A stretch of 63,183 bases of DNA, the filler included, from Perkinsus olseni (taxonomy: Eukaryota), in assembly GCA_013115125.1 (NCBI GenBank). It is 39 parts of 39 records of this genome, joined end to end, with 100 filler letters (N's around TTAATTAATTAA, not from the genome) between each part and the next. Parts side by side here need not be neighbours in the genome. Positions count along the whole stretch, not along the records: positions 23,031 to 24,561 come from JABANN010001849.1; 38 more parts are not named here. One strand, given 5' to 3'. Positions within the stretch are counted from its first letter, which is position 1, and every line of letters starts with the position of its first letter. Made by a program: the position numbers and the translations under genes. A model generated the notes under the pieces. That model made no database searches, had not been told where the DNA came from, and worked only from the letters and a program-made list of their open reading frames with translations. Below, one piece after another: positions 9,831 to 55,404 of this stretch.

Positions 9831-9944
9831 NNNNNNNNNNNNNNNNNNNNNNNNNNNNNNNNNNNNNNNNNNNNTTAATTAATTAANNNNNNNNNNNNNN
9901 NNNNNNNNNNNNNNNNNNNNNNNNNNNNNNTGTGCGATTCCACC

Positions 9945-11182
9945 ATGGATTACGCTCTTGTGTGAGCTGTTACAACACCCTCATCCCTTGTTGAGCCTCA
10001 GTCGTGGCACATGGTGGAGAACCCGGGCCTCTTCTCGAGTTCCTCGACCTTGGCTCTATCGAAGATCTTCAATACTTGACACTCGCCGACCTGGACGAGC
10101 AGTTCCGCGCCAAAAACGCATCGCCTGCTACCAAAGCCGGGATGCGCCGCCTTTTCCACGCCCACTTCAAGACCCCCCTGGTGTATCGGAGGCCCCTTCT
10201 CCCTCCGCCAGACCCTCTGACACCTCTGTCCAGATCCTGAACTCCGTTGGATCTGGAAGTTAGCGATCGCCCGAGATATCCGAAACGGCTGGCCGACCAT
10301 CGGTGATGACAACTATTATTTTGGTTTGATGATATTTTGGACTCCTATGGCGTTGTATATAAGCAATTAAGATAGGTCTAGTGATAGCGTGTGCACGCAT
10401 GAGTCCGTGTTGAGCCGTAGCCATCTTGGCTCAAGTTTGTTTGTTCTAATCTCCATCCTCCCCCTCGCGTCGTGTTCCACAGTCCTGGGACGGTGAAAAC
10501 TAACACTCCCTCAGCCGCGAGTCGCGGCCCGCGACGGCCCCTCTAGCCTCCTCACGACTGATGCCTGGAGCACTTCCGGCTCTGACCCCGCTCCTACCGT
10601 TTCCGCCACCAAGTTCCTCGACGTCGTGCGATGCATCACACTCCCGAACAACAATGCCTACCGCGGTCGGACCGACGACCGCAGCATCACCGCTTACCTC
10701 AACAGTCTCTATCAAGAGGTCGTCCAAGCTGATTTGACCCACCGTCAAGCTTGGCTTCTTCTCCTTCGTGCGTTCGACGAGCCTGCCAAGACCAGTCTCC
10801 GCCAGGCGGTTCAGGCATCCTGCGTGCCTCGTGGCGTGTGGATGAAGGATTTCGCCCTTATGGTTCGTGAAGGAGCTTCCTGGGCAGAACGTCAATATGG
10901 CGAGTCCAACTCTCACGACCGCATCGATGACAAGTTCGACGACTTCAAGCAGCGCTACGGCGAATCCGTCCATGCTCTCGCGGACCGCCTCGCTTTGCTC
11001 AAGTATGAGGCTGATTCCGCCGGATACGCTGTTACCCCGTCTCAGCTCCTTCGCGTTTATCGTCGTTCTCTGTATCCCCGTCTTCGCACTCTCGCCTCCA
11101 CCACCTACTGTGGTTGCGATACGGTCGACGCTCTTGTTCGCCACCTTCACCGACATCTCCGTCAGAATCCTGACTTCGACAA
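9945..11182 (+). pseudogene. Disrupted retrotransposon gag
   Basis: Gag motif FDDFKQRYGESVHALADRL; N-terminal part has a stop and a frameshift; interrupted at about 10206-10505 and cut at 11183 by another repeat. Confidence 0.7.
10414..10435 (+). other. Genomic spliced-leader copy, Perkinsus 22-nt type
   Basis: GCCGTAGCCATCTTGGCTCAAG, 21/22 to ACCGTAGCCATCTTGGCTCAAG; followed by TTTGT rather than a GT donor, so not an SL RNA gene. Confidence 0.92.
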
Positions 11183-11322
11183 GGGGTGTATTACGATTCG
11201 TACACCGAAAACTCGTACACTATCGCTTCGTACACGGCTCGTACTGTACGAGGTGTACACTGAATACTCGTTCACTCGTCGGATTCATACATCGTCATTT
11301 CGTACACTTGAGACTCGTACAC
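11183..11322 (+). repeat. Dispersed repeat with TCGTACAC sub-repeats (putative DNA-transposon end), copy 1
   Basis: GGGGTGTATTACGATTCGTACACCGAAAACTCGTACA; related to 19766-19839 and 55333-55404 on the minus strand. Confidence 0.75.
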
Positions 11323-11326
11323 GCCG

Positions 11327-11475
11327 GTGGGGAACACGCGGCACTACCTCCTCTCCTGTCCGCTCCTGGAGCAGGCTAGGAATAGGGTCAAAGGTGGTGT
11401 CCCCTACCATTTATATAAACTAATTGTTGATTTGAAGCGACGCAAGTCCTTCAATCAACTTTGTTCGGCCCTCAT
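11327..11475 (+). mobile_element. LINE ORF2 C-terminal fragment
   Basis: TRHYLLSCPLLEQAR matches the H-x4-C-P half of the non-LTR C-terminal CCHC motif. Confidence 0.5.
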
Positions 11476-12254
11476 NNNNNNNNNNNNNNNNNNNNNNNNN
11501 NNNNNNNNNNNNNNNNNNNTTAATTAATTAANNNNNNNNNNNNNNNNNNNNNNNNNNNNNNNNNNNNNNNNNNNNATGCTGATGCGCTGCGCTGATGTCC
11601 CAGCGCCGCTGCGCGCACTGGGACATCAGTTGAGGCCGAGCGAGTAAAAATGGTAGATTTTTGAACCCGCAGGGATTCGCTGACTGTGTATTAAAAGTTG
11701 CGGAACGCGAGAAGGCAGAACAATCAATGATGGATAGCCGTTCTCCCGTGAGCTGGAAAAGATGAAAAAATGACCATTTTGCATTTTTCCCCAGCAAGCT
11801 TTAGAAGCCTTTGTGATTGCACGTTGCAATTTGCACCGAGCTCATCCTCTATCGGAGCAATGTCAACTCCAACCTTGGCTGCCAGCCTGGCATTGCCGAG
11901 GACATGCGCGGTCAAAAGCAAGTGGACGATGAGGGAGAGAAGCACGAAAATGCACTTTGGAGAGTGATGAGTACAGTAGCACCACAGTAGTTTTCCATGG
12001 CCCGGACCCGTTGGGCGATCCGCCTCGGACCATGCAACGAGCGGCAAGGGTGCAAACAGCGTGACCTCAGATCCTCTCCTGTTGCTTTCTGAACATTATC
12101 CAGAGAGAGCTGCAGCGAACTCCTTCATCGCTTCTGCATCGACCTCAACGTAGCACACAAGTTCATGCGTGCGAGTTGGCCCGCACACGTGGCTCGATCG
12201 GTTTTGCTGTAGCGGATAACGGGTCAAGCTTCTGAGATAATTCTTGTGGTCAAA

Positions 12255-12698
12255 ATGTTGTTCATTCGCACTGCAGTGATGGTGCTGCTCTTCATCCTGA
12301 CCCTCGTGGGTGGTATTGCTTCCGGTAGTGCCGACACCCCGCAGAAGGACCCCTCTTCTACTGGAAGAAGACTCTACCCATTCAAGGCAGGCTACGAAAA
12401 CATCCGTAGTACTCTGGTTGAAGACATATATTTTGACAAGACCTTGGGTGGCACTGTTACCTTCTACCGCGCATCAACCCGCAGCCTGCCCAAGCCATCT
12501 TACTCGTGTGGTTACACTGCGAAGCAGGGTGGAAGGTTGATTGAGATTAAACTCAACGACGGTTGTCTACCTCTCATCCGTGATTCTCGTGGCAGATATG
12601 ATAGAACCCTCCTCACTGGCATGCGGGTCAAGTTGGATTACAGTGAGCTGACCGTTCCCGAAACCGGCGGGAAGGTCGGAACTTATCATGAGATTTGA
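12255..12698 (+). CDS. Small secreted hypothetical protein (147 aa), intronless
   Basis: Signal-peptide-like MLFIRTAVMVLLFILTLVGGIASG; two Cys; clean ORF with coding-like codon usage. Confidence 0.8.
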   Translation: MLFIRTAVMVLLFILTLVGGIASGSADTPQKDPSSTGRRLYPFKAGYENIRSTLVEDIYFDKTLGGTVTFYRASTRSLPKPSYSCGYTAKQGGRLIEIKLNDGCLPLIRDSRGRYDRTLLTGMRVKLDYSELTVPETGGKVGTYHEI

Positions 12699-13219
12699 TA
12701 ATGTCATTGCAGATGAATCATCTGAGATAATACGATAAAGGGCTTCACTTGAGCAACTCGAGCCGTCACGGCTCAGCTGCTGCTACGAAGAATCTTACTT
12801 TCTTCCAGCTGCCGTAGCTACCACCAAACTCTGCCCGAGTCGTATTTTTATCCATTATTCTCTAGCCTAGAGGTTACCTAGAGACTCTAGGTAACCTCCC
12901 CATTATTTTCTTTTCGAAAATACCCGGCGAGTGTCGCGTAAGTCTTCCCTTCATTCTTCCTTCCCCTGCAACACGAACCTTCACAAGTCTACTACCGACC
13001 TCCACCGGACGGGTTCTCGCTGGGGTTTTGACAAAACCGTTTTGTAATGTTATGACTCGTGCGAGCGTCCCGTACTAGCGCAACACCGACGTGCCGCCAG
13101 TCAATGATATCAGTATGCANNNNNNNNNNNNNNNNNNNNNNNNNNNNNNNNNNNNNNNNNNNNTTAATTAATTAANNNNNNNNNNNNNNNNNNNNNNNNN
13201 NNNNNNNNNNNNNNNNNNN

Positions 13220-13945
13220 CATCTGACGAGCCAGCACACTCGACCGACCGCGAAAGTTCTTGTCTACCCGTAGACACACCAGATCACCCGACATCATACA
13301 TATCTTAGCCAAGTAGCATAGATACTCGGCGGTGTTCGCTCCTCGCTGAGCGGATCAAGCCACTTCTACCGCCACCAACCAACCGCATAGAGCAAAGGTG
13401 AGCTCACTGAAAGAGCGCGGCTCTCTCGAACCTGGTCTTATCTTGACCTGAACCGATTCTCCGTCGAGGCGCTCTCTAGTCTCCGTGGACTCCTGGGTCT
13501 CGGCCTGATCACAGGGGATACGCAGGGAACGGTACACGCCCGGATCCAACAGTATAGCCGCCAACATAGGCGAGTCGACCAAGAGGTTATTGGTCAGGCT
13601 CCCACCAAACCTGGCTGCCGATCTCGTTAGGAACTCGGTCCTGACCTTAGCTGGGGGAACGCGCTTGCCCGAGGCAGAGTCGGCGACTGTCCGGAGCTCC
13701 CCCTTCACACGCATCAGAGCGACCTCACGGGCCACCCTCTGGTCCTCTGTCGCCTCCGCATCAACTGGCGAGAAACGGGTGTTGAAAGCCGTCAGGGGCG
13801 TATCGTTGGATAGCAGGCCCTCCAGATAGGTCACGCGGTTAATCTCCATACCATGAAGTGTTTCCACCGCTCTCGTAGCCAATTCCACCGTGCAGTCGGC
13901 GCTAGCTAGCTCCTTGAAGGCTTCAGGGGACAAGGGGCCGGCCAT
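13220..13945 (-). mobile_element. DIRS/Ngaro-like ORF1 with an internal TGA at 13357-13355
   Basis: Frame stays open past the stop as SAQRGANTAEYLCYLAKICMMSGDLVCLRVDKNFRG, which aligns by eye with GYGFRVAQVASLYGWEMALEVDEAFRR at 31167-31682. Confidence 0.55.
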
Positions 13946-14371
13946 CTTAGCAGGGAAACGAACTGGAATAGAGAGTGGAGGCCGTCAAGAGCCAAGGGTA
14001 AGACACATTAGATCCTGCGAGATCGAGTCTCTTTCCACTCTCCGACTCGGGCCGCCACGTAGCGCAGCCCGGCTTCAGCTCTTAGCTGCTCCGGCTACTT
14101 AGCCGGGCGCAGTGGACACCCAGAGTACTCACCCCAAAGCTGGATCCATTCTTCCGTTCACTACAAACTTTCGCGGCAGACTCGAGCGGGCCACGAAGAT
14201 GCTTGGACTACTCCGGCCCCTCCGCTGTCCTCCAGGTTGTCTCATCATCTTGCAGGACCGCTGCCCACTCGCAGCACATCATACGCAACTAGTCAACCTC
14301 GACACAAGAATGGGCATGACATTCGATTTGGGGGTGGATCCGCCCTCATAGGCGCTTTCCGAGGGTCCTTA

Positions 14372-14737
14372 ACACACTTAACTCCAATACTCACTCCGCT
14401 CGAGGACTGGATCTGCGCTCGAAGACGCGTTCCAAGACCTCCTGAGCACACTTAACTCAAATACACACTCCGCTCGAGGACTGGATCTGCGCTCGAAGAC
14501 GCGTTCCAAGACCTCCTGAGCACACTTAACTCAAATACACGCTCCGCTCGAGGACTGGATCTGCGCTCGAAGACGCGTTCCAAGAACTCACGAGCACACT
14601 CAACTCAAATACACGCGCCGCTCGAGGACTGGATCTGCGCTCGAAGACGCGTTCCAAGAACTCATGAGCACACTCAACTCAAATCCACACTCCGCTCGAG
14701 GACTGGGTCCGCGCTCGAAGACGCGTTCCCAGACCTC
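14372..14737. repeat. Tandem repeat, about 5 x 74 bp
   Basis: CGAGGACTGG(A/G)TC recurs at 14401, 14475, 14549, 14623 and 14697; whole units near-identical, no unique spacers. Confidence 0.97.
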
Positions 14738-15239
14738 TGCCATCGAACCCTCGGCCCTNNNNNNNNNNNNNNNNNNNNNNNNNNNNNNNNNNNNNNNNNN
14801 NNTTAATTAATTAANNNNNNNNNNNNNNNNNNNNNNNNNNNNNNNNNNNNNNNNNNNNCATATGAGACGTTAAATGCACCAATAATCAACAAAGCCTTTG
14901 TAACACCAGTGTTTCTTCACCGTTGTTAGCAGTAAATGTTACAAAACTTTTAAGAGGGCACTGTCCTCCTATTATCATGCAAGTTACAGAGCTGCTCAGT
15001 CCGGCGTTAAACTTAGAGTGGGAAATACGATGATCGACCCCTGTGCACAGTCATCAGGTACAGGAGAGTCGCAACAGCACAACACTTGCCGCGAACGCTG
15101 CGCAACAGCCCCAACTCGAAATTTGATGCGATACGACAAATTTTGAACTCAGTTGAATTTCAGTTGCAAATCCCGCTCCGTCGTACACTGGAAGCCTCGC
15201 CCGCCGCAGCCATTGGACTTGATCAACACAAGAGTTCAA

Positions 15240-15261
15240 CTTGAGCCACGATGGCTACGGG
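15240..15261 (-). other. Genomic spliced-leader relic
   Basis: CCCGTAGCCATCGTGGCTCAAG, 20/22 to the SL; followed by TTGAAC, not GT. Confidence 0.8.
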
Positions 15262-16082
15262 ACTGCTCCTGTCTCTACTTCCGGCTATCGACCTGACTAC
15301 TCGTTAAGTCAAAATGCGCTCGCCCGGGGGATCGATTACACCAACACGATCCACCCTAAATTCGGCGAACTCTACTCGTCCCGCCCTGTCGATGATAGCT
15401 GTGGGTATTGAACTACGAGGCTATAGCGCAAAGCAAGTAAGTCCCATACCAAACAAAAACCCTACAGAGATCATCGGTTGGGCTAGTTTGCCGGAAGTCA
15501 TACCAGACTGGTATTACCAGTGGCGGCCCGCCACTGGCGGGCTGGCCGTTCGCATCTCGCGTGACATGCCTTCCACGATGCACCGTCGGGTGGTTGGCAA
15601 CCACTGGTTGCTGGAACCGCCGCCACCGGACGAGTGCCAACTACAAGATAGGTGGGCACTCGTTGCATGCGACGGGGACACAGGCTTAAAGTCTGTGCCC
15701 ACCGAGATCTCAGTGGAGTCCACTGAGTGGACGGCCACTTGCTGCGTCCGCATACACAGGCCCTTGTTACACGGCCGCTTGCCACACCTAGTTCATCGGA
15801 CTACAGTAAGAGAGGCCGCTTGCCACACCTAGTTCGCCGGTGCTGACATGCAGAAAGTGCGTTGCGGCTCTCATCAATGTACTAATCTCTATACGGGTGT
15901 ACTAAAGTGAAGTCGGTTTTCTGAGACAAAGGTACAAAGGCAAAGGCGAGTACAACTAGCGGCGGGGTTCGGTGCCCTTGCTAGTGGCGCGCAGCAAGCG
16001 CTGACGAAGACACCACAGGCTGTGGTTTCTTTGTAATGATCTCTTCGCTGCGGGGGCTATGGATCACATGACAGTTGTCATC

Positions 16083-16325
16083 ACTCAACTCAACTCAACT
16101 CAACGCTTATTGCCGGGCATTACAGGTCAGGGGCCGATCGTCCTTAAACACACAATGGCCGACTCAAAAGTGAAACTAAGCTGGCCCAGCCACGGCATCC
16201 CCCGACAATGATAGGTACAGCACAAATGAGCAAAGTATGTTAATAGGGATTCGTACTGATGCATGCGCGGCAGCACCGGACCTACAGAGGCAACGTGGTC
16301 AGAGGAGGATGGGGATACTATCCCG

Positions 16326-16326
<1 letters not shown>
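16083..16326 (-). mobile_element. Probable non-LTR retroelement 3' end
   Basis: Minus strand ends AATAAGCG followed by (TTGAG)4, a short-tandem-repeat tail. Confidence 0.35.

Positions 16327-16394
<68 letters not shown>
16327..16394 (+). other. 68-nt poly-G at contig end, probable sequencing artefact
   Basis: Pure G run abutting a linker, typical of two-colour Illumina no-signal tails. Confidence 0.8.
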
Positions 16395-16494
16395 NNNNNN
16401 NNNNNNNNNNNNNNNNNNNNNNNNNNNNNNNNNNNNNNTTAATTAATTAANNNNNNNNNNNNNNNNNNNNNNNNNNNNNNNNNNNNNNNNNNNN

Positions 16495-18030
16495 CCAGCG
16501 AGGCACTATGGGCATGCGATGTGCGCTGTGAAGGGCCACGATCCAAATCCCCCCATGTGAGATTCGTCGGCAGTGTTGGAGTACACCCACTTACTTCTAG
16601 ATCTATTCCGGCCAAGGAGCTGGATAGTCTCTATAGAGCAGTGGAGCTAATTAAGAAGGTCATGCTGGACTGCCCGAAGGTCGAGAAGGTGACATTCTTC
16701 ACCGATTCGGAGATAACTATCCATCGATTGAGAGCCTGGTCCTCTGGAAAGTATCAGAGACTCGGCCTAGGTACCTTTGAGAAGAATCTTCTGCACAAAA
16801 TCAACGGGTTCTTGACGAGAAGAAGATTCACTGTGGAGCATATCATAGGTAGAGCGAATCCAGCTGATGCTGCGACACGCCCTGGCAAGGAGACGCTGAC
16901 TAGCAAAGAGATAGACTATGGCCTCAAGAAGTCCAAGAGAAGAGGGAATCTACGGTATGATCCTCAAGCTTATAAGTCGGTAGTCAACGCCTTCTCCGTA
17001 GCGACGGAACGAACGAGAGATGGAGAAGATTATGAGTTGGTGTTGCCCGGAGACTCTCAGCTTCGGTCGAAGTTAGTTCAATCTCAACTACGAGATCAAT
17101 GGATCCAAGGTATGAAGATTAAGATCAAGGAGGGTGCGACTTTGAAAAGTCCTCAGACGAGAGGCCTTCAAGTACATGAAGGAACCGGTTTGCTTGGTAA
17201 AAGAACGCTTTCTTGGAACGCCGCTGATGGTAAAAGGACGGTTGACTTAGGAGGACTTCGATATATTATTCCTGACGCAGATACCTTGCTTCAGGATGAG
17301 ACTATAGCTCGACTCCATATACACGGTGGCGTGCCGATGAACATCAGGAGACTATGCTCTGAGTTCTACTTTAAGCATATGAAGGCCAAATGCAAAAAGT
17401 ATGTTAACAACTGTGATGTGTGCGAGAAGCTGCGTGCAGACCGATCCTGTCGGAAGGCAACAGGTGCACTCCCTTCGTGGCAAGTGGGGTGGCTACCATG
17501 GGAATGTATATCGTTGGACTATGTAGGACCTTTGTGCCCTGGTGCTGAACTACCGGTGCAAAAAGATGAGCATCCTTCGGGGTTTAGGTACTATTTGAGC
17601 TTCGTCGATGTAGCGACGAAGTATATGATCAACGTCCCAGTAAGGGATCGTTCTGTATCCTCTCTCATCGCTACAGTGAAGGAGGTGTTCTTGGAAAGAG
17701 AGCAAGTACCGAAGTGCTTGATCACCGACCAAGAGCAATCCTTTCTAAGTAAGGCCTTCCAGAGTTTTCTGCTCTCATTACCATTCACCATTCACCATGT
17801 CATTGGAGCACCCTATCAGGGCCCTCACGCAGGTCACTATGAACGACTTCATGCTGACATTACGAAGTTCCTACAAGGAGCGTTAGTTGCCGCGGGTGAG
17901 GACACTTATTGTTGGCATCGTCATCTTCAACATGCCACTCAGCTCCATAACACCCTCCCCTATGATGAATGTATTGATGTCTCTCCTGCAGAGCTATTCC
18001 GGGGATATGTGCCCAGAAAAGCTATGGACA
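16495..18030 (+). mobile_element. Bel/Pao-like LTR pol fragment: RNase H and integrase
   Basis: SIPAKEL, FFTDSEI, NPADAATR (RNase H); HIHGG...CDVC zinc-binding motif; DDE triad in SLDYVGP, ITDQ, HYERLH. Confidence 0.92.
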
Positions 18031-19765
18031 NNNNNNNNNNNNNNNNNNNNNNNNNNNNNNNNNNNNNNNNNNNNTTAATTAATTAANNNNNNNNNNNNNN
18101 NNNNNNNNNNNNNNNNNNNNNNNNNNNNNNCAGTTTCAGTCTGAAACTCGCATATTAGAAATGGGTGGTACTCACAGCTGGTCACCACGACCAGAGACCC
18201 TCCGCTTCTAATAGGGTTACAGTATACCGGAATTCCTCGATCTCCGGGATTCGCGCATCCCTCTAACTTAGTGACCTAGTATTACTCGAATGCTGCTGTC
18301 ACCAGCATGATACCGGCAGCATCTCAACTGCATCGCCGAAAAGACGGCGTCGGGCCGAGATATCAGGGGGCCTTGCGGGAAATTGTGCTGACCCGCTCTT
18401 GTTGTCTCCCCACTGTCCCTCTGCGGCTTCGGAAGACGAGCTTGAACTCGACCAAAGGCGCGAATTCTAAGTCTTAAACAGGCTCCCACACGAGCCCTAT
18501 GTGGAATCTTCCTGCTCTGAAACAGAGGCTCGTGTGCGAGTAGATGTACGAGATGCTTGATGTTGATCATTTTCATCGCCACCCTGTGCTGGAGACAGCT
18601 CATGCGCGTGAGGGGGACAGCTGGACGAGATGTGGCAGTTTGAGTGGCAACGCTTACAATTAATGTGGTCTCCGACCGTAAATAACGAACCGTTATGTAT
18701 GGGCTTTGGGGCGAGCCCTTGAATGCAGTGCTTCTGCTATTGTTCCTTAGTGCCCGTGACTGAAATGCATGCCCGCTCTCATACGTACGACTGTATGTTG
18801 TATGAACCTCGTAGCCATTATCGAAGGGACGAACCGCATTTCATTGTTAACTGTAGAGGTATCGCCCTCAGAGCCTCGCTCTGTTTAATAGAGTCTGACG
18901 CGTCGCTCACTAAGTTCCGATATCATGAATCGTGCTATCAATGGCAAGTCCATGATGGAATTCTTTCCAGTCGATTCCACTCGGGCCTAGGGCTGATACT
19001 GCTTTGCAGCCCATAGTTTGCACAGAGAGTCTCCTGGCCATGCCGAGGCGGCATTACCAACTTTCCCAATGCAGCCGAGTTCAATTTAGATAACTGCCGG
19101 GTTCCGACTGAAGGTTGAAATCAAAAGACCAAATAATGGTTGTAGGGCTTTTGGCTGCAGTTGTGCCGCACAACTTGCGCGAACCGATTCTGGATTCAAG
19201 CGGTCTACCGCCGAAGAGCACCACCTGCCTATCCCAACCTTCAAGGGTACGTGTCAACGCGTTTAGCGTCCACTGGTACTGAGCACTGCCCAGTGTACAC
19301 GCCGAACACTTGACGGCGTCGATGACCGTACAACCGTCGACGACCCCGAATATGAATAGCCGGGGCCTTCAATGCACGAATAATCTCGAAGCCTAATTCT
19401 CCAAGTCTCGAGCCACGCTCAAGCGTCCATTACAACCTTGATTATGTGAACCGTCGTGAGCTCAAGTTCTTCAATATGTATACCACACTTGTGTGATAAG
19501 AGTGCGAGGGCTGTGATATCTTCCTCTCACATGCACGTACTACTAGTACGAATTTCTCGTCGGCCGGGATCGACGGAGCTTTGACTCCCGCATTAGCTAG
19601 GAGGATAGTTCTTTGTCTTGCTGTTACCATATCTTATTCAGACTATCACCCAAAGTTAACGCGTCNNNNNNNNNNNNNNNNNNNNNNNNNNNNNNNNNNN
19701 NNNNNNNNNTTAATTAATTAANNNNNNNNNNNNNNNNNNNNNNNNNNNNNNNNNNNNNNNNNNNN

Positions 19766-19839
19766 TCGAAGATGTATGAGTATTGGAGACATGAGTCGAA
19801 AATGTACGACTATTTGGTGTACGAAACGTGAACATCCCC
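19766..19839 (-). repeat. TCGTACAC-family repeat end, copy 2
   Basis: Minus strand GGGGATGTTCACGTTTCGTACACCAAATAGTCGTACATTTTCGACTCATGTC; contig breaks inside it. Confidence 0.75.
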
Positions 19840-20938
19840 TTCGATTAGCCTCTTGACCAGTAAGATAGTGACTATCGACCAACGCTCTTGCCGCACGAGT
19901 TGAAGCCGGATAAACTCCGCATAGCCATAGCAAGTACGCAACTGAGTCCCGCGAACGATGGGTGGACCAGTATTTCGCTGGAGAGGAGTCTGGGACTCCT
20001 CTCCAGCGAAATACTGGGGGACTCCGAGTCCCCCAGTAGAGACTCATCGACGCGGCTATGAGCACCTGGAAGACGGCTCTACATGAACGAAGAAGAAAAG
20101 CAGTGATACCGTGGTGCTCAAGTTGAGCCGCGGAACTACTTTAAAGTGAAGTTGAACAGCTCAACTTCACGCACACATCACGAGCGAAGGACTGCGAGAC
20201 TTGCAGTGTGTTGCCACGACACAACACTGTCGGCTGTCGCTCGCTACGATTGATGTTATACGCATCAATGAGCTGTTGATCAGTGATTGAGATGAGTTAA
20301 GCTTGATATTACCCTCTCTAACACCTGTCTATTCATTGTGTTCACCGAATTATACAGTGCAAGCTACTGTGGAGTACCCCATGCTGCTGCGTAGGTGATG
20401 CACTGGCGACGAGTGCGGTATGGCCCACATGGCGCGGGATAGCTGAGGTATTAGTACCTCAGCATCACCGAATCATACCATCATCAGCAGTGCCGGAAGT
20501 CGCTACGGACTAGCCATCCGAAGGAGGTCCGATATCCGGGTGGGCCATCATGTAGACGATACACCGAGTGATTGAGAACACTTGACCAGAGGTTTGCCAT
20601 CTGGGAAACCATTTGTCATCTACTGACTCAGTGTCAGCACCGAGTTAGATTATCTCCAACATAGCTTCTTATCGAAGCAAAATAGGATCAGCGGAATAAC
20701 CGTTGCAAGAGAGTCAAGAGGCCAAGTGAAGAGGCCTTGGGCGCACTCAGTGCGCACATAGGCTACTCAACGTGGTGACGAGAAATAAAAACTTGTTTCC
20801 AATGCTGGAAAAGAAGCTGAGTCAGCAGAGCTGATCTAATGGGAAGCACGGGGACAACTAAACAGGAAAGTTATCCATGAGTGAGCTGGCAGTATACATC
20901 TGCGCACAAGACGCTAATGTAATCAGCTCGTTGCCACC

Positions 20939-21298
20939 CTACCGCCGGGCTTGAACGACACGCTCTGAATATAAGAGAAGTCGTTTCCTTCTGAGTGCCA
21001 CAGGAACCCCACCAAGCTGTGAGTAGATTGTGCTCGGGGTCGCAAACATCACTGTAGAGAGATCATGAAGTCCGTGGGTCGCCAGAGGACAATTTTCCCT
21101 CACCCATTTATGTAGATCATCCAGAGAGCCTCTCCTAGTTGACTGTATTTCATAGTAGACGAAGCCAGACTCCGTCTCCTGGCGGGAAAGCTGCAAGTCA
21201 ATCAAAAAGGGTTTCTTGTTGCACAATGCAAATCCTGCTCCGATGCACACGACCCACCCTAAACTCGTCGAACTCGACTCGTCCCGCCCTGCCGATGA
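20939..21298 (-). CDS. 3' part of a hypothetical multigene-family protein
   Basis: Open frame ...VRENCPLATHGLHDLSTVMFATPSTIYSQLGGVPVALRR; 21251-21298 is similar to about 15348-15395; a frame change near 21250 implies an intron or frameshift. Confidence 0.5.
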   Translation of the reverse strand, partial: SSAGRDESSSTSLGWVVCIGAGFALCNKKPFLIDLQLSRQETESGFVYYEIQSTRRGSLDDLHKWVRENCPLATHGLHDLSTVMFATPSTIYSQLGGVPVALRRKRLLLYSERVVQARR

Positions 21299-21398
21299 NN
21301 NNNNNNNNNNNNNNNNNNNNNNNNNNNNNNNNNNNNNNNNNNTTAATTAATTAANNNNNNNNNNNNNNNNNNNNNNNNNNNNNNNNNNNNNNNNNNNN

Positions 21399-22300
21399 AA
21401 ACCTATAATTTTATTGACGTCCTTACCAACAAATATTTTGGAAAAAGACAAGGGAAACGACAGGGTAGTGAGGAACAGACAGAGCGCCGCGCTCAAAAAC
21501 GCCAGGGAAGAACGCAAACAGATGAGCGATACATCATCTACATACAGTATTACTACCCTGCGATAGGCCTTGGTCAACCAATTGAAAATGCGAACCAAGG
21601 CGCCAGCGACTCGTCCCCACCAAAGTGGGGACGATCGCAGCCCAAAAGGATATCTGAGATGACGGGCTGCGACCAACTTATCATCCGGTGAGAGCAGCTG
21701 TATAGAGAGATACTTAGACTCGCTCCTATCCACCGGCAGGTTCCTGAACGCCCCAGCAAAATCGAGCTGACAGACTGCCCAGTCCTCACCGAGCTCCTGC
21801 ATTCGACCCGCCACGGCTTCCATAACCATCCGATAGTCCTTCAGCTGCGGAAGGAGCGTAGTTTCATGTAGAAGCGACCTATCCACCGCGCAACGGTTCA
21901 CACCGTTTTCTTTGTAGTCTTCTACGACTCTGATTTGCACAGCCGGGTCGGACAGCCGCACAGACTTCTTGCGAGCGTCGGTACCTCCTTTGCATATAAC
22001 TGCACACTTGACGAAGACCGCATCCGGCGACGACGGCGACACCCATTCCATATGGCCCTTGTCAACGTCACGAGCCACAACCTCCCACAGGCGGAGGCCG
22101 GCCTCGTCCACACTCGGGTAATGGCTCTCAAAGGCAGCCGCCATAGACGGCGGTTCTTCCCGACGGATCTTAGTATAGTTAGGCTTGAATACAGGATAGC
22201 AACCAGAAGGAGGAATGTCATTCTCGATGCCCGCAGGAAGACCCCGAGGGACTAGCAAACATTGAGGGAGAGTCTGATCGACGTCCCCCGAGCATCTCAG
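21399..22300 (-). mobile_element. DIRS/Ngaro-like reverse transcriptase fragment
   Basis: GLPAGIENDIPPSG, QLDFAGAFRNLPV, YPFGLRSSPLWW, LYVDDV; open throughout. Confidence 0.88.
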
Positions 22301-22930
22301 CAGGGTTTGTCCATTTTGGGAATAATGGCACCTTGTTCCCAGAACGGGAAATTTCCCGGAAATTCCCGGGAAAAATAGTGGGAAATTTCCCATTTTTTCC
22401 CGCATTGGGAAAAAAGGGAAAAAATGTTTTTCCCTCTACCGAGGGAAGCTGCTGGCTTATATTTGATGCATTTGCACGAACTGCTCACCAAGCCTACTTG
22501 TCCCAGTGTGGTGGATTTTGCATTAAATCGAGCAGCTCGATCACCTTCGCATAGTTTCGGTGCAAGGCTTCAGAAGATGCCCCACTCGCGACCCACCGAG
22601 TGTCGGAACCCAGCAATATCTGCGTCCCCTTGTAGAACCGATGTGGGTAGCCAGAGTTGGTGAATCTTCTTGCGAGATCACATAACAGAACAAGGCCGTT
22701 GAATTCTCCTCTCCTCGTTATCTCCCCAGTAGCTTCTCTGCGGGTCACGCCGCACAGCTCACGTGCCATGATCCCATTCATATGCAAGTGACAGCCGATA
22801 CTCAGCGCCCGGGGGAGAGGTTCGTTTTCAGCAGCTGCCGAGTTCAAAGAAGCACATAATGTAGCCCTAGCCAGGGCAACATTTGCAGCATTATCCGTAA
22901 GGATAGAACCGATCCGGTCCATGGGAATGC
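22301..22930 (-). mobile_element. hAT transposon 3' end with internally deleted transposase, inserted in the RT ORF
   Basis: Terminus CAGGGTTTG at 22301; GGGAA/TTCCC subterminal repeats; transposase motifs LTDNAANV, CHLH (CxxH) and DTRW at 22494-22930. Confidence 0.85.
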
Positions 22931-24126
22931 NNNNNNNNNNNNNNNNNNNNNNNNNNNNNNNNNNNNNNNNNNNNTTAATTAATTAANNNNNNNNNNNNNN
23001 NNNNNNNNNNNNNNNNNNNNNNNNNNNNNNCGATCACTTCTTGCATCATATCACTCCAGCCAACTTCCCCAATCTCCACGCACCTTCACTCGCGCACTTT
23101 CACCTCAGTGCTATCTATCTGTCTACAATTCCCCGGGAGTTTCCCACGGACGATATATTTACTCGCTCACTTTCACGATGAACCGTACAGAGATAGCAAT
23201 TCAGCGTCAGCGATTTCCAGAGCTGGCACGCGCAAAAAGAGAAGACGCTGACCTTTCGAATGCTTCACCGTTTCGAACTCAGCATCTTTTTTCAACCGAG
23301 CATTCGGTACCGAAGAGGTTCCAGTCAGTCGAGCTCCATCTTTCACCTCACCCGATCGTCCAGCAATCGGAACGGATAGCATTGCTAGGTCAAGATGCTA
23401 GGTCATCAAGGATTTGCGCTGCTCGGTCCCTCCATGTGGAGCTCTGGCGGGGCTCACCAATGCTCCGCACATCACCGACTCCGTGCAATGTGCGACTCCG
23501 TGACTCCAACGCCATCACATCCTAGACTCTGGCAATGGTTTGAGGCTTACGATCAGTGATCGTCAATCATCTCTCCAATCGCTACATTGAGGGAGCTGTA
23601 CCGCTCAAAATTGTGTTCCGGTTGATCAGATAGGTCACCGGTCAACGCAGGCTTCAACTCGCAAAAAGATACCAAACCAAGAAGTGGTTTGCATCCGTAT
23701 AAACGATCGTATCAAGTGTACGAGACCTCGCCTGACCAAGGCCAGGGAGAGGACTAGATCGCCTAGTACACAAGAGCAGATCCACAAGAAGACAACAACA
23801 ATCTGCGATAGATGAAAGTGTTTCGATGGAGTGAAACGGACTACTCAAATCGAGCTTCCCGAACAACCCAGTACATCTTTATGATACCAACCGTAGGATT
23901 TTTGTTGCGCTGGCTGGGTGTTGTCTAAGGTCTATCCGTGTTTCACCACCTGGAGGCCCAGGATTGATAAAAGAGTTAGGTAACAAAGCGACATCCGCTT
24001 CCGCCTCACAGCATTCATTACCCTCAAATCCAGTGATATGATAGAGCTTCTCCAGTTCGGAGTCAAGATCTTTTTTAGGCTTTCCCTTATCATTTATGGA
24101 GCTTGTCGATGATGAAAGATTTTGGC

Positions 24127-24359
24127 TGTACCGCAGTACCACCGCTCCAATTGTGTGGTGAGCGGCACCCCTCAGCCGCTGCACTCTCAATTGACGACGT
24201 GAACTCAGACATTAGGAAGACTTGAGTCAAGATGGCTACGCACAATCTCTCCGCTCCGCGAGACGCCCCCCGCCGGTCACGTCACCCGTGACCGTCTCCT
24301 GAGCCTCCACGCGCGCGCCGCACGCGCGCCAACCTTTAGCTGGCACCGCGCCAGCTACA
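24127..24359 (-). mobile_element. Putative 3' LTR (233 bp, TGTA...TACA) containing an SL copy
   Basis: Starts 2 nt after an AGGGGG purine tract at the end of an integrase-like frame; TGTAGC/GGTACA termini; SL match at 24242-24221. Confidence 0.65.
24221..24242 (-). other. Spliced-leader copy within the LTR
   Basis: CGTAGCCATCTTGACTCAAG, 19/20 to the SL 3' 20-mer; followed by TCTTCC, not GT. Confidence 0.82.
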
Positions 24360-24561
24360 CGCCCCCTGGAGGAGGTGGAACAGGCTCGTCTAAACGGTGA
24401 ACAGCCTCAGGAGAGATGCGCTTCAAATGGTATAAGTGGACAGGACGAGTGTGAGCACAAGTAGCAGTGCGGACAAGGTAAACTTCGCGAGAAATGCAGG
24501 AAACAATCCGACAGGGCTCGAAGAAACGCCGAGACTTCTTTTGGAGACCGAAACGACGCAC
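24355..24561 (-). mobile_element. Gypsy-like integrase C-terminus
   Basis: KKSRRFFEPCRIV...VYLV...PVHLYHLKR resembles the GPY/F module (KL-x-x-x-F-x-GP ... VH-x-x-x-LK). Confidence 0.6.
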
Positions 24562-40760: not shown

Positions 40761-41645
40761 NNNNNNNNNNNNNNNNNNNNNNNNNNNNNNNNNNNNNNNN
40801 NNNNTTAATTAATTAANNNNNNNNNNNNNNNNNNNNNNNNNNNNNNNNNNNNNNNNNNNNTCGATGAAGCAGATATACAGCAATATCCATATACAGCCGC
40901 CGACCAAGCACGACAGGGCACTATGCCGATATATTAATCGGACGCTGAACCTGCCCCGTCCAAAGAACGAGAAAGAAAAGAAAAAAAATCGGTGTGTTGG
41001 GCACACTCGCCACAGTAACTGTTCTGAACGTCATAGTATGCGTGGAACTAATGGTCAGAGCGCGCACAAGCGTCCTGCAATGCGCTGACACCTGCCGCTA
41101 GCTGAGACCGACCGAGTTGTGTGCCAAACACAAAATAGGAGACGAGCAAGGAGAGGTAACGACTCCGGGTCGAACTGCACTTCCAAGCACATGTGCATTC
41201 CAATTTTATCTTTCGGTGCCCACCTCTTCACGATGAGGCACGGTGCGTGTTGAGGGAGCAGGTTGCACGACAAATAATCTGACATTAGATGTGTACGCGG
41301 GTTCACCGACTTCTAGTGAGAGGAACGCGTTTTGCTCCGTTCAGGTGGCGTGAACATATACGTTCTGCATACCTCATGGCAGGGCGACGTAGAGATAACA
41401 TTGGGCTGGCTCTTGCCGCAAGTCTTGTGGCTATTGAAATCACTCTCCAATCGTGTTGATTAATGACCATTCATACGGCATGCGAACGTGGTGTCGTGGT
41501 GCCGCAGTTCACATCTCCAAAGCAAGCTCGTAACTTCCAATACACTGAAGGTGATTACGGGAGCAATAAGTGCACGAATAAACGTCAAGGGACTGACCGA
41601 AGATTTTCAAATATCGGAAGGCATGGGCTGACAAGATACGATACG

Positions 41646-41717
41646 TGGACGTGCCGAGAATTGAACCCGGGGCCTTCTGCATGCGAAGCAGACGTGATAC
41701 CCCTACACCACACGCCC
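41646..41717 (-). tRNA. tRNA-Ala(CGC)
   Basis: 72 nt; acceptor GGGCGTG/CACGTCC with G3:U70; anticodon arm TCTGC-TTCGCAT-GCAGA; T arm CCGGG-TTCAATT-CTCGG. Confidence 0.96.
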
Positions 41718-42130: not shown

Positions 42131-42202
42131 TGGACATGCCGAGAATTGAACCCGGGGCCTTCTGCATGCGAAGCAGACGTGATACCCCTACACCACCCGC
42201 CC
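42131..42202 (-). tRNA. tRNA-Ala(CGC), variant copy
   Basis: 70/72 identical to 41646-41717; acceptor GGGCGGG/CATGTCC has a G.A mismatch and an extra G:U. Confidence 0.85.
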
Positions 42203-50515: not shown

Positions 50516-52021
50516 GTGACGATTTGGTTAAGAAGTACGATGAGCAATTTGAAGGTTGGTTGGAACAAGGTTTTATAAGCCCTGTTCCTGATGATCAAGT
50601 GAAGCACTACTTGTTTCATCATCCAGTTATTCGTGTTGGCCACCCTACTACCCCTGTTCGTCCGGTTATCAACGGTCAGTCACTCGACCCATACTTGAAT
50701 GAAACTGTATGTGAGTTGCTTAGGATCGTTGATATCTTGGTTGGTTGGAGGCAAGCTCGTAAGTGGGCAGCCTTCGACTTGAGTAAGGCATTCTTACGCA
50801 TTCAAATGCGCAAAGAGGATTGTCCTTACCTTGGTATTTATTGGAAGAACCAAAGCTATGTCTTTAACGTCCTTCCATTTGGTCTAAGTATGAGTCCCTC
50901 TTGGTTGACGGCTAACATTAAAGAAGTGCTGGTACGTCTCAGTAAGGACCCCGCCTTCTCTTCGCAAGTTCTTCCTTACATGGATGACTTAATGTTGTTG
51001 GTACAAGATGGTGTAGACATCATAACACAACAGCATGCCTTGGTACGAAGGTTCGAAGAAGATGGTTTTCCTATTGCTACGTCTAAGACGGTTTGGTTTA
51101 CTCAAGCCGAGTCGTCTAAGATTTTAGGTGTTCCTTGGTATGGCGCTCTTTCCGACTCTATAGGAGTTAGCTTCACCTTCAAAGGAGATGTTGTTGATTC
51201 TCGTAGAAAGTTGGTAGCCATGGTTAACGCCTTTTACGACCCGTTAGGGCTTTGCCTCGAGTTCGAGATGACTGGGCGAAAACTAATGAGGTTGGTATCT
51301 TCTCTAGAATGGGATGCAGATCTAACGCCTGAACTCTATTCCGAAGCTAATTCCTGGCTAATTAAAGCTAAGAAGATTGCCAAAGAATTTAGATGTCCTA
51401 GGTTAATAGACTGCTCTCAGTTGGTTGTTTATGCCGATGCTAGTGCTGATTCTTGGGGAGTTGATGTCCGAGACCGCCAAGGTGTACGCGTATTAGCTGT
51501 TGGTGGGTTATTTCCTGTCGACAGACAGGAAAAATGGACTATCCCTAAGAAGGAACTACTAGCCTTGGTTCATAGTCGAGAAGTAGTAACCCGTATCTGG
51601 AAAGATTTCGCTGATAGTGATAGCAAGAGGTCTGTGATTATCCTTAGTGATTCTCAGATTAATTGTTACCGCCTTCATAAGGAAATTCAATCCAAAGATA
51701 CAAAAGCGTGGGAGTTGAAGACAATAGCTTCCTTACGTGGTTGGTTACTAAATAATGATGTTATTCTTCGTCATGTTGCTACTGATTGGAATGTAGCCGA
51801 TGCGATTACTCGTGGTTGTTTTCCTAATCTGGTCAGCTCAGATAAGATCAACGCCACTATAGGTTGGTTGAGCTCTGGTTATTCTAACCAGGCTCCTTGG
51901 GGAGATACTATCAACTTCGAACATGAAGAATTGAAGTTTGAGAAGGCCCTCAAGAAAGACTACGATAGCCAGTCTATGTTAGTAACCGATCAACATGAAG
52001 AAGAATGTGCTAATGCCAAGA
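50516..52021 (+). mobile_element. Bel/Pao-like pol fragment: RT and RNase H
   Basis: [63 protein letters not shown]. Confidence 0.93.
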
Positions 52022-55332: not shown

Positions 55333-55404
55333 CGAAGGTGTACGAGTATTCGAGACATGAGTCGAAAATGTACGAGTTTTCGGTGTACGAGTCGTGAACA
55401 TCCC
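55333..55404 (-). repeat. TCGTACAC-family repeat end, copy 3
   Basis: Minus strand GGGATGTTCACGACTCGTACACCGAAAACTCGTACATTTTCGACTCATGTC; contig breaks inside it. Confidence 0.75.

Follow-up and report, generated by a model that had tools for sequence, protein, structure and literature searches.

Replication of LTR retrotransposons needs an identical R region at both ends of the element RNA, and spliced leader (SL) trans-splicing replaces the RNA 5′ end. The Perkinsus olseni locus analysed here raises the question of whether a copy of the host leader, found in the middle of a repeat that follows an integrase-like reading frame, is a fixed part of an LTR and, if so, what it does there. An earlier note on this DNA had proposed that the SL marks the U3/R boundary of the LTR.

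The window, i.e., the whole stretch of DNA that was analysed (63,183 nucleotides, of which 59,383 are real bases), consists of 39 spacer-joined contigs of about 1.5 kb each. The contig at positions 23031-24561 holds the LTR, and the remainder of the element lies outside the window. Proteins with 95-99% identity to one reading frame of the window bear the NCBI species name Perkinsus olseni, as do the relatives of the integrase, and the DNA was taken as that of P. olseni. We compared the LTR locus with the contigs of four of ten listed public sequencing runs (X1, X7, X9 and X10). Statements on copies and variants rest on the 18 of 42 aligned contig pieces that were listed, and the substitutions and indels given are those among these pieces. 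Run X1 possibly gave rise to the window itself and offers no independent evidence on the LTR locus; in X9 (RNA, as a guess) and X10, the LTR has no contig cover. Summed contig depth is not equated with copy number.

Limits of the LTR

Based on the points at which the contigs change, we delimited a multi-copy repeat of 206 bp with TGT..ACA ends on the minus strand (24154-24359). At its left end, an X1 contig joins position 24359 to other DNA and an X7 contig ends exactly at 24359; a diverged X7 variant of the LTR has its own start, TGTAGCTG. At its right end, the match of one X1 contig to the window breaks off at 24154, and an X7 contig that lacks the repeat (a leader-free allele) agrees with the window from 24153 onward. 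Because the contigs switch DNA at 24359 and at 24154/24153, the LTR is 206 bp long and not 233 bp (TGTA..TACA), as had been read from the sequence; the TACA at 24127 belongs to flanking DNA (24127-24153, minus strand), which is present without the LTR in X7 record 13. A TG..CA pair with a 7-bp inverted end was found around 117 of 150 random points, and such pairs carry little weight when chosen by sequence only.

Copies of the LTR are dispersed, with differing flanks in X1 and X7. In X1, the flanks and the integrase tail have depths of 369-375 and the repeat has 3-7 times the flank depth, which is not a copy number; single-depth contigs (records 3, 4 and 8) span both LTR junctions. With its ends fixed by other flanks in two runs and with pol directly upstream, the segment is an LTR, as the earlier note had claimed; according to the contigs of X1 and X7, it is not single-copy, nor do the other members lack the SL, two of the findings that the note had set against its own reading.

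In X1, a stretch like 23212-23287 is joined to the LTR start, and in X7 such a stretch stands 89 nt before the empty allele. Because the downstream flank is single-depth in X1, the X1 join is probably the 5′ junction of the same element, which would imply a paired LTR. The start of the LTR's contig (23031-23160) is a high-depth repeat, with 13 times the flank depth in X1, that also aligned in X7 and X9. Regarding a primer-binding site (PBS), two loose ends near 24154 showed no clear tRNA complement. The only tRNA genes of the window are two for tRNA-Ala(CGC), located 485 bp apart on the minus strand (41645-41717 and 42131-42202). A branch at 24135, in which the LTR end is followed by 19 shared nt and then by other DNA, was set aside as a PBS candidate, as depth arithmetic suggests a minor branch (about 18 versus 369), and a likeness of the form CCACA-4 nt-TGG between 24154 and 10480, which was chosen post hoc, was set aside.

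Integrase tail and element class

Positions 24358-24561 (minus strand) encode the last 68 codons of a single-ORF Gag-Pol, i.e., an integrase C-terminal domain ending in GGV. The V codon and the stop codon overlap the beginning of the repeat, with the stop (TAG, 24357-24355) inside the LTR. Among 1.84 billion representative proteins, the 68-residue tail had one match, P0005 (E 5e-8), which contains an rve integrase core and to whose end the tail is 54% identical. P0005 led to P0009, P0010 and P0011, each of which is encoded in a single frame and contains RT and integrase domains; P0009 also has a zinc knuckle, and P0010 a protease. The tail is identical in 36 of 69 residues (52%) to the very end of P0010, a 1374-aa Gag-PR-RT-RNase H-IN protein of P. 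olseni, and GGV is terminal in both. Taken alone, the 68-aa tail gave no Pfam family and none of 13 candidates in a word-indexed search. The matches to P0005, with its rve core, and to P0010 confirm the integrase-like C-terminus that had been proposed upstream of the repeat. The repeat starts where pol ends and was therefore placed as the 3′ LTR; homology and contig junctions together show that 24154-24359 is the 3′ LTR of a P. olseni LTR retrotransposon with a single Gag-Pol ORF. The AGGGGG tract reported before is indeed present at 24367-24362 (minus strand), 2 nt before the LTR; it is a short polypurine tract of only 6 nt that also encodes the terminal GG, and its position suggests that it may act as the PPT.

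As to the class of the element, Ty1/Copia was rejected, integrase being last in P0009, P0010 and P0011 and at the LTR here, not before RT. For Ty3/Gypsy, the order in the relatives is RT-RNase H-IN, and the only PDB match was Ty3-G, over the integrase. For BEL/Pao, the RNase H motifs are Pao-like by eye only; Peptidase_A17, DUF1759 and DUF5641, which we take to be the names of Pao-type Pfam domains, were not found at E 0.1 in any of three relatives. P0009, P0010 and P0012 from Perkinsus and P0011 from a metagenome represent DUF7047 single-ORF LTR elements, known from proteins alone, and the likeness of the present element to P0010 comprises the 52% identity of the integrase tail, the GGV end and the order Gag-PR-RT-RNase H-IN. 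In viral contigs, the exact SL had 0 matches, and an alignment of four relatives gave 85 pattern hits, 0 of them confirmed. The nearest Atlas clusters to P0010 residues 520-1000 (RT-RNase H) have as their most frequent taxon Euglenozoa, another SL trans-splicing group, a lead from three records only. Elsewhere in the window, 16495-18030 (+) is an open RNase H-integrase frame (rve, Integrase_H2C2) of another LTR element, 21401-22432 (-) is a reverse-transcriptase frame matching RVT_1, and 50524-51144 (+) is a reverse-transcriptase frame distantly related to P0009-P0011.

The leader copy in the LTR

The sequence of PmaSL1, the 22-nt Perkinsus leader, is printed in the accessible part of PMC3101222. 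The 20-mer at 24240-24221 (minus strand) is identical to bases 3-22 of this leader in 19 of 20 positions, with G>A at 24227 as the sole mismatch, and TCT, not GT, stands directly 3′ of it. The 20-mer begins at base 120 of the 206 of the LTR. Before it lies the segment that we infer to be U3 (24241-24359, minus strand), which has about 72% G+C, no TATA, stacked palindromes, a fold z of -3.2 and a purine-rich end, with 33% pyrimidine in its last 30 nt; the 67 nt after it (24154-24220, minus strand) are the putative rest of R plus U5.

Matches to the last 21 nt of the SL with up to 3 mismatches number three in the window and 0 in each of 100 shuffles. The first is exact (10415-10435, plus strand; SL bases 2-22), the second has one mismatch (15240-15260, minus strand; SL bases 2-22), and the third is the LTR copy, found as a 21-mer at 24221-24241 (minus strand), in which 24221-24240 correspond to SL bases 3-22 apart from the G>A change at 24227. 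Each of the three copies is followed by one of TCT (the LTR copy), TTG and TTT, with no GT donor in any; all three lack SL base 1, and one also lacks base 2. Both the 19/20 match and the missing donor had been recorded in the earlier note and stand. A tandem 15-nt relic was not found, as the 15-mer (up to 2 mismatches) matched only the three single copies of the window; the 21-nt S-type SL had 0 matches there, and Rfam had 0 matches on 9931-24561. An SL RNA gene was rejected for the window copies, the GT donor and the SL intron being missing and no Rfam match being present in 9931-24561. A dinoflagellate-type SL-relic retrogene was also rejected, as the SL is internal to the 206-bp repeat, with a tail of 67 nt and no tandem relic. 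The use of G>A at 24227 as a marker of a self-encoded leader holds in part: the variant is present here, but it is not family-wide, with the canonical G in X7, and in a 3′ LTR it tests only its own copy.

Other leader-bearing insertions in the window

The second SL lies in a 155-bp insertion of solo-LTR type (15189-15343, minus strand) with TG..CA ends (TGG..CCA) and a 4-bp target duplication, GTGT, in its flanks (15347-15344 and 15188-15185, minus strand). An empty paralogous site was located in the contig at 19766-21298, at 21227-21298 (minus strand). Its left side agrees with the insertion flank in 47 of 52 nt and its right side in 16 of 20 nt, in a common register; this register requires 159 extra bases, the last four of which repeat the left flank. 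Across both strands of the window, a right-flank match of 16/20 is reached, apart from the query itself, at a single position, the empty paralogue. SL bases 2-22, with one mismatch, are bases 84-104 of the insertion. In local alignments, the 155-bp insertion and the 206-bp LTR have the SL alone in common. The SL is placed at 53% of the former and 57% of the latter, the tails are 51 and 67 nt long, and the 30 nt before the SL have 30-33% pyrimidine in both. A TGTAACA..TGTTACA pair, spanning 873 bp around the second SL, was rejected as within chance.

The third SL, the exact one, is found at about 61% of the length of an approximately 300-bp insertion (about 10232-10529), whose ends are not clearly LTR-type; it has small hairpins at both ends and a TATA-like word 60 nt before the SL. 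This insertion splits a gag-like frame that is continuous in P0002 and P0004; the gag label of 10004-11200 (+) was given by eye, with 0 of 3 relatives labelled by Pfam and an Atlas lead only (0.75). All three SL copies of the window are located inside short insertions or repeats, two of the three with LTR-type ends, and the presence of an SL in an LTR is a real and apparently recurrent feature.

Four metagenome loci with the SL followed by TCT (L001-L004, G+C 58-63%) were rejected as LTR cases, no LTR or pol being seen by eye; their internal SLs, with the Perkinsus-type C at the variable site, are probably relic leaders of other alveolates. The window also contains a tandem repeat of about five 74-bp units (14366-14735) and a common 45-72 bp repeat (19767-19838, 55333-55404 and 11181-11225), two copies of which stand at contig starts.

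Conservation of the leader across the LTR family

All four contig pieces spanning 24221-24240, among the 18 of 42 listed, align across the SL with no listed gap. A loose end of X7, from another strain, has the canonical SL, with G at 24227, followed by six extra bases, TCTCAG, and an X1 piece has a similar 6-base insertion after the SL. X1 record 6 is the exact window variant at 1.4 times the flank depth, which is not a copy number, and the non-canonical A could have been transmitted to a second copy. At the sequence level, several copies from two runs show that the family carries the host SL as a fixed part of its LTR.

In X7, record 14 and record 15 each end 7 letters past position 24218. 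Given the 30-letter contig overlap, their shared node extends from SL base 3 to the tenth base after the SL, and the two differ at the base that precedes this node. Upstream of the SL, record 15 has about 13 differences from the window in 76 nt plus a gap; at this rate, identity by chance is expected at 0.4-0.9% over 30 nt and at 2-4% over 20 nt. In this one contig pair, read from coordinates and not from letters, two U3-divergent variants, about 15% different upstream, are apparently identical from SL base 3 on, and conservation apparently starts at the 5′ end of the SL. From this conservation switch and from the second SL-bearing insertion of LTR type, we infer that the SL marks the U3/R boundary. 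Since other causes commonly keep R and U5 better conserved than U3, the switch supports the SL as the start of R, not its being refreshed.

Proposed self-restoring trans-splicing and alternative explanations

During LTR replication, the strong-stop DNA, a copy of U5 and R that reaches the RNA 5′ end, must pair with the 3′ R, so both new LTRs receive as the start of R whatever forms the RNA 5′ end. We propose, at about even odds, that first-strand transfer brought the SL into the LTR, where it marks U3/R and is regenerated whenever trans-splicing uses its own terminal AG. The RNA of an ancestral element would have been trans-spliced, and the reverse transcriptase would have continued through U5, R and the leader as far as the modified cap end. 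After first-strand transfer, both new LTRs would have had the leader inserted after U3 and before the rest of R. Thereafter, the RNA 3′ end would also have the SL, and a strong-stop DNA ending in anti-SL would pair fully. In later cycles, transcription would start in or upstream of U3, and U3 would be lost as an outron when trans-splicing used the terminal AG of the genomic SL, or occasionally the next AG, which would restore identical letters. R would survive, the SL of new copies would be refreshed from the host leader, and the G>A at 24227 would be a later change in a single LTR copy.

The lack of SL base 1 in all three copies is expected if the reverse transcriptase stops at the cap end. 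Use of an internal AG would build tandem relics, none of which is seen in the three window copies, and the purine-rich 30 nt before the SL in both LTRs would be a poor setting for an internal AG. The 6-nt length difference after the SL ends at CAG and is consistent with trans-splicing at the next acceptor; it is explained equally well by slippage at the AGTCT repeat. An AAG with no upstream pyrimidine tract is a weak acceptor. Against a refreshed leader, the SL has one change in 20-21 nt in both window LTR copies, which is no better than neutral decay. The possible second A-variant copy in X1, the missing clear products of intron-less SL-like loci in P. marinus (PMC3101222) and the avoidance of genomic-RNA trans-splicing by Cer1 and L1Tc also weigh against the proposed cycle. 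The capture of host mRNAs, suggested in the earlier note, would be awkward by geometry: on an mRNA that begins with the SL, a strong-stop DNA with anti-SL at its end would have nothing further to copy.

More tentatively, several unrelated Perkinsus LTR families may have converged on a trans-splicing-dependent replication, in which U3 is an outron, either instead of a promoter or in addition to one, and the 5′ end of the genomic RNA is set by the spliceosome, not by a start site. If so, the hard-wired leader would render trans-splicing self-restoring and strand transfer would work; the reverse transcriptases of such elements would routinely copy SL-capped ends and would be a prime candidate source of the relic-SL retrocopies of the Perkinsus-dinoflagellate lineage.

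Alternatively, the SL could have been captured in the same manner, with the LTR promoter now starting at the self-encoded SL, no trans-splicing, and selection keeping the sequence. The location of the SL at U3/R, the missing tandem relic and the conservation switch are also predicted by this explanation, which fits the unspliced genomic RNA of Cer1 and L1Tc and would fit the possible second A-variant copy in X1 (record 6). However, the 206-bp LTR has no TATA, SL bases 1-2 are not kept, two unrelated U3s must each have placed the start site on the SL, and the canonical SL of both X7 variants is equally explained by refreshing; we consider a self-encoded start unlikely.

We also regard as improbable that each family acquired the SL a single time, when a trans-spliced RNA was reverse-transcribed, and has inherited it passively, with transcription starting elsewhere. 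Relic SLs are common products of retroposition in the Perkinsus-dinoflagellate lineage, each window LTR copy has one SL change, and more than 100 intron-less SL-like loci of P. marinus are reported, with no RNA detected, in the accessible part of PMC3101222. Such an inheritance agrees poorly with two variants that diverge in U3 and yet are apparently identical from SL base 3 on, and with the occurrence of one almost complete SL at a similar position in elements that are unrelated.

A capture at the DNA level of an SL RNA gene fragment (promoter and exon), which would then serve the LTR as promoter much as a SINE head does, would let transcription start exactly at the SL, but is very unlikely, as the DNA before the SL is unrelated among the three window copies (local alignments found the SL only) and neither a GT donor nor an SL intron follows, unlike in the gene primers of Table 1 in the available text of PMC3101222. 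Finally, a one-off SL-headed retrocopy or a misassembly beside an integrase remnant, which would account for the copy at 24154-24359 having no visible TSD or PBS and for an integrase tail at flank depth in X1, is hardly credible in view of several differing flanks at two identical ends in two studies, single-depth X1 contigs (records 3, 4 and 8) that bridge both junctions, and a conserved GGV-stop that continues into the repeat.

Relation to known systems

An SL in an LTR combines two known kinds, the LTR element and the relic SL. Relic spliced leaders of dinoflagellate and Perkinsus retrogenes were reportedly described by Slamovits and Keeling in 2008. As far as the accessible parts of PMC3229502 and PMC6050394 go, relic SLs on retrogenes, P. 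marinus included, and the idea of two AG acceptors are already published, and the documented acceptor in dinoflagellate relic SLs is the internal AG (PMC3229502). Those retrogenes, as described in the same parts, share with the LTR leader a donor-less genomic SL, for which the best explanation is that a trans-spliced RNA was reverse-transcribed; they differ in that the SL heads a retrocopy of a host mRNA, with truncated tandem relics, whereas that of the LTR is single, near full-length and internal to a replicating unit. Which reverse transcriptase makes relic-SL retrogenes is stated to be unknown in the available portion of PMC6050394, and the SL-in-LTR bears on its source. It would also allow the AG that serves as acceptor in a genomic SL to be tested directly.

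Cer1, a Ty3/Gypsy element of C. elegans, is likewise an LTR element with an SL1 acceptor in an SL trans-splicing host; unlike in the reading favoured here, only its subgenomic 2.4-kb RNA is trans-spliced and the 8-kb genomic RNA skips the site, and no SL within its LTR is reported in the accessible text (PMC3315495). Pr77 of the trypanosomatid L1Tc/ingi elements is also a 5′ module of a retroelement that solves the trans-splicing problem; it differs in being an internal promoter of a non-LTR LINE, with unspliced RNA and no SL copy (PMC1874656, available part). An SL fixed at U3/R and re-made by trans-splicing would be the opposite of the Cer1/L1Tc solution, i.e., unspliced genomic RNA, and would apparently have been reached more than once. 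In a cestode, according to the portion of the source available, a solo LTR competes in cis for the trans-splice acceptor. In the full-text literature searched, with most subscription journals and supplements outside it, there was no report of an SL inside an LTR, and a mention in a Perkinsus genome paper is possible; none is given in the accessible parts of PMC9911081, PMC9399869, PMC3942190, PMC12014239, PMC7245778 and PMC4558846.

Zhang et al. (2011; PMC3101222, accessible part) described intron-less SL-like sequences of P. marinus at over 100 loci with variable downstream DNA, for which 3′ RACE and blots gave no clear product. They resemble the LTR leader in having an SL with no SL intron and differ from it in that many are tandem, starting with T. 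The available text has 0 matches for "transpos" and does not link these loci to transposons. SL-bearing LTRs may explain part of them, and genomic SL matches and SL-primed PCR products in Perkinsus can derive from LTRs. As a hint only, the L2-like primer in the available text of PMC3101222 includes TCTCAGT after the SL, as does the long form of the LTR.
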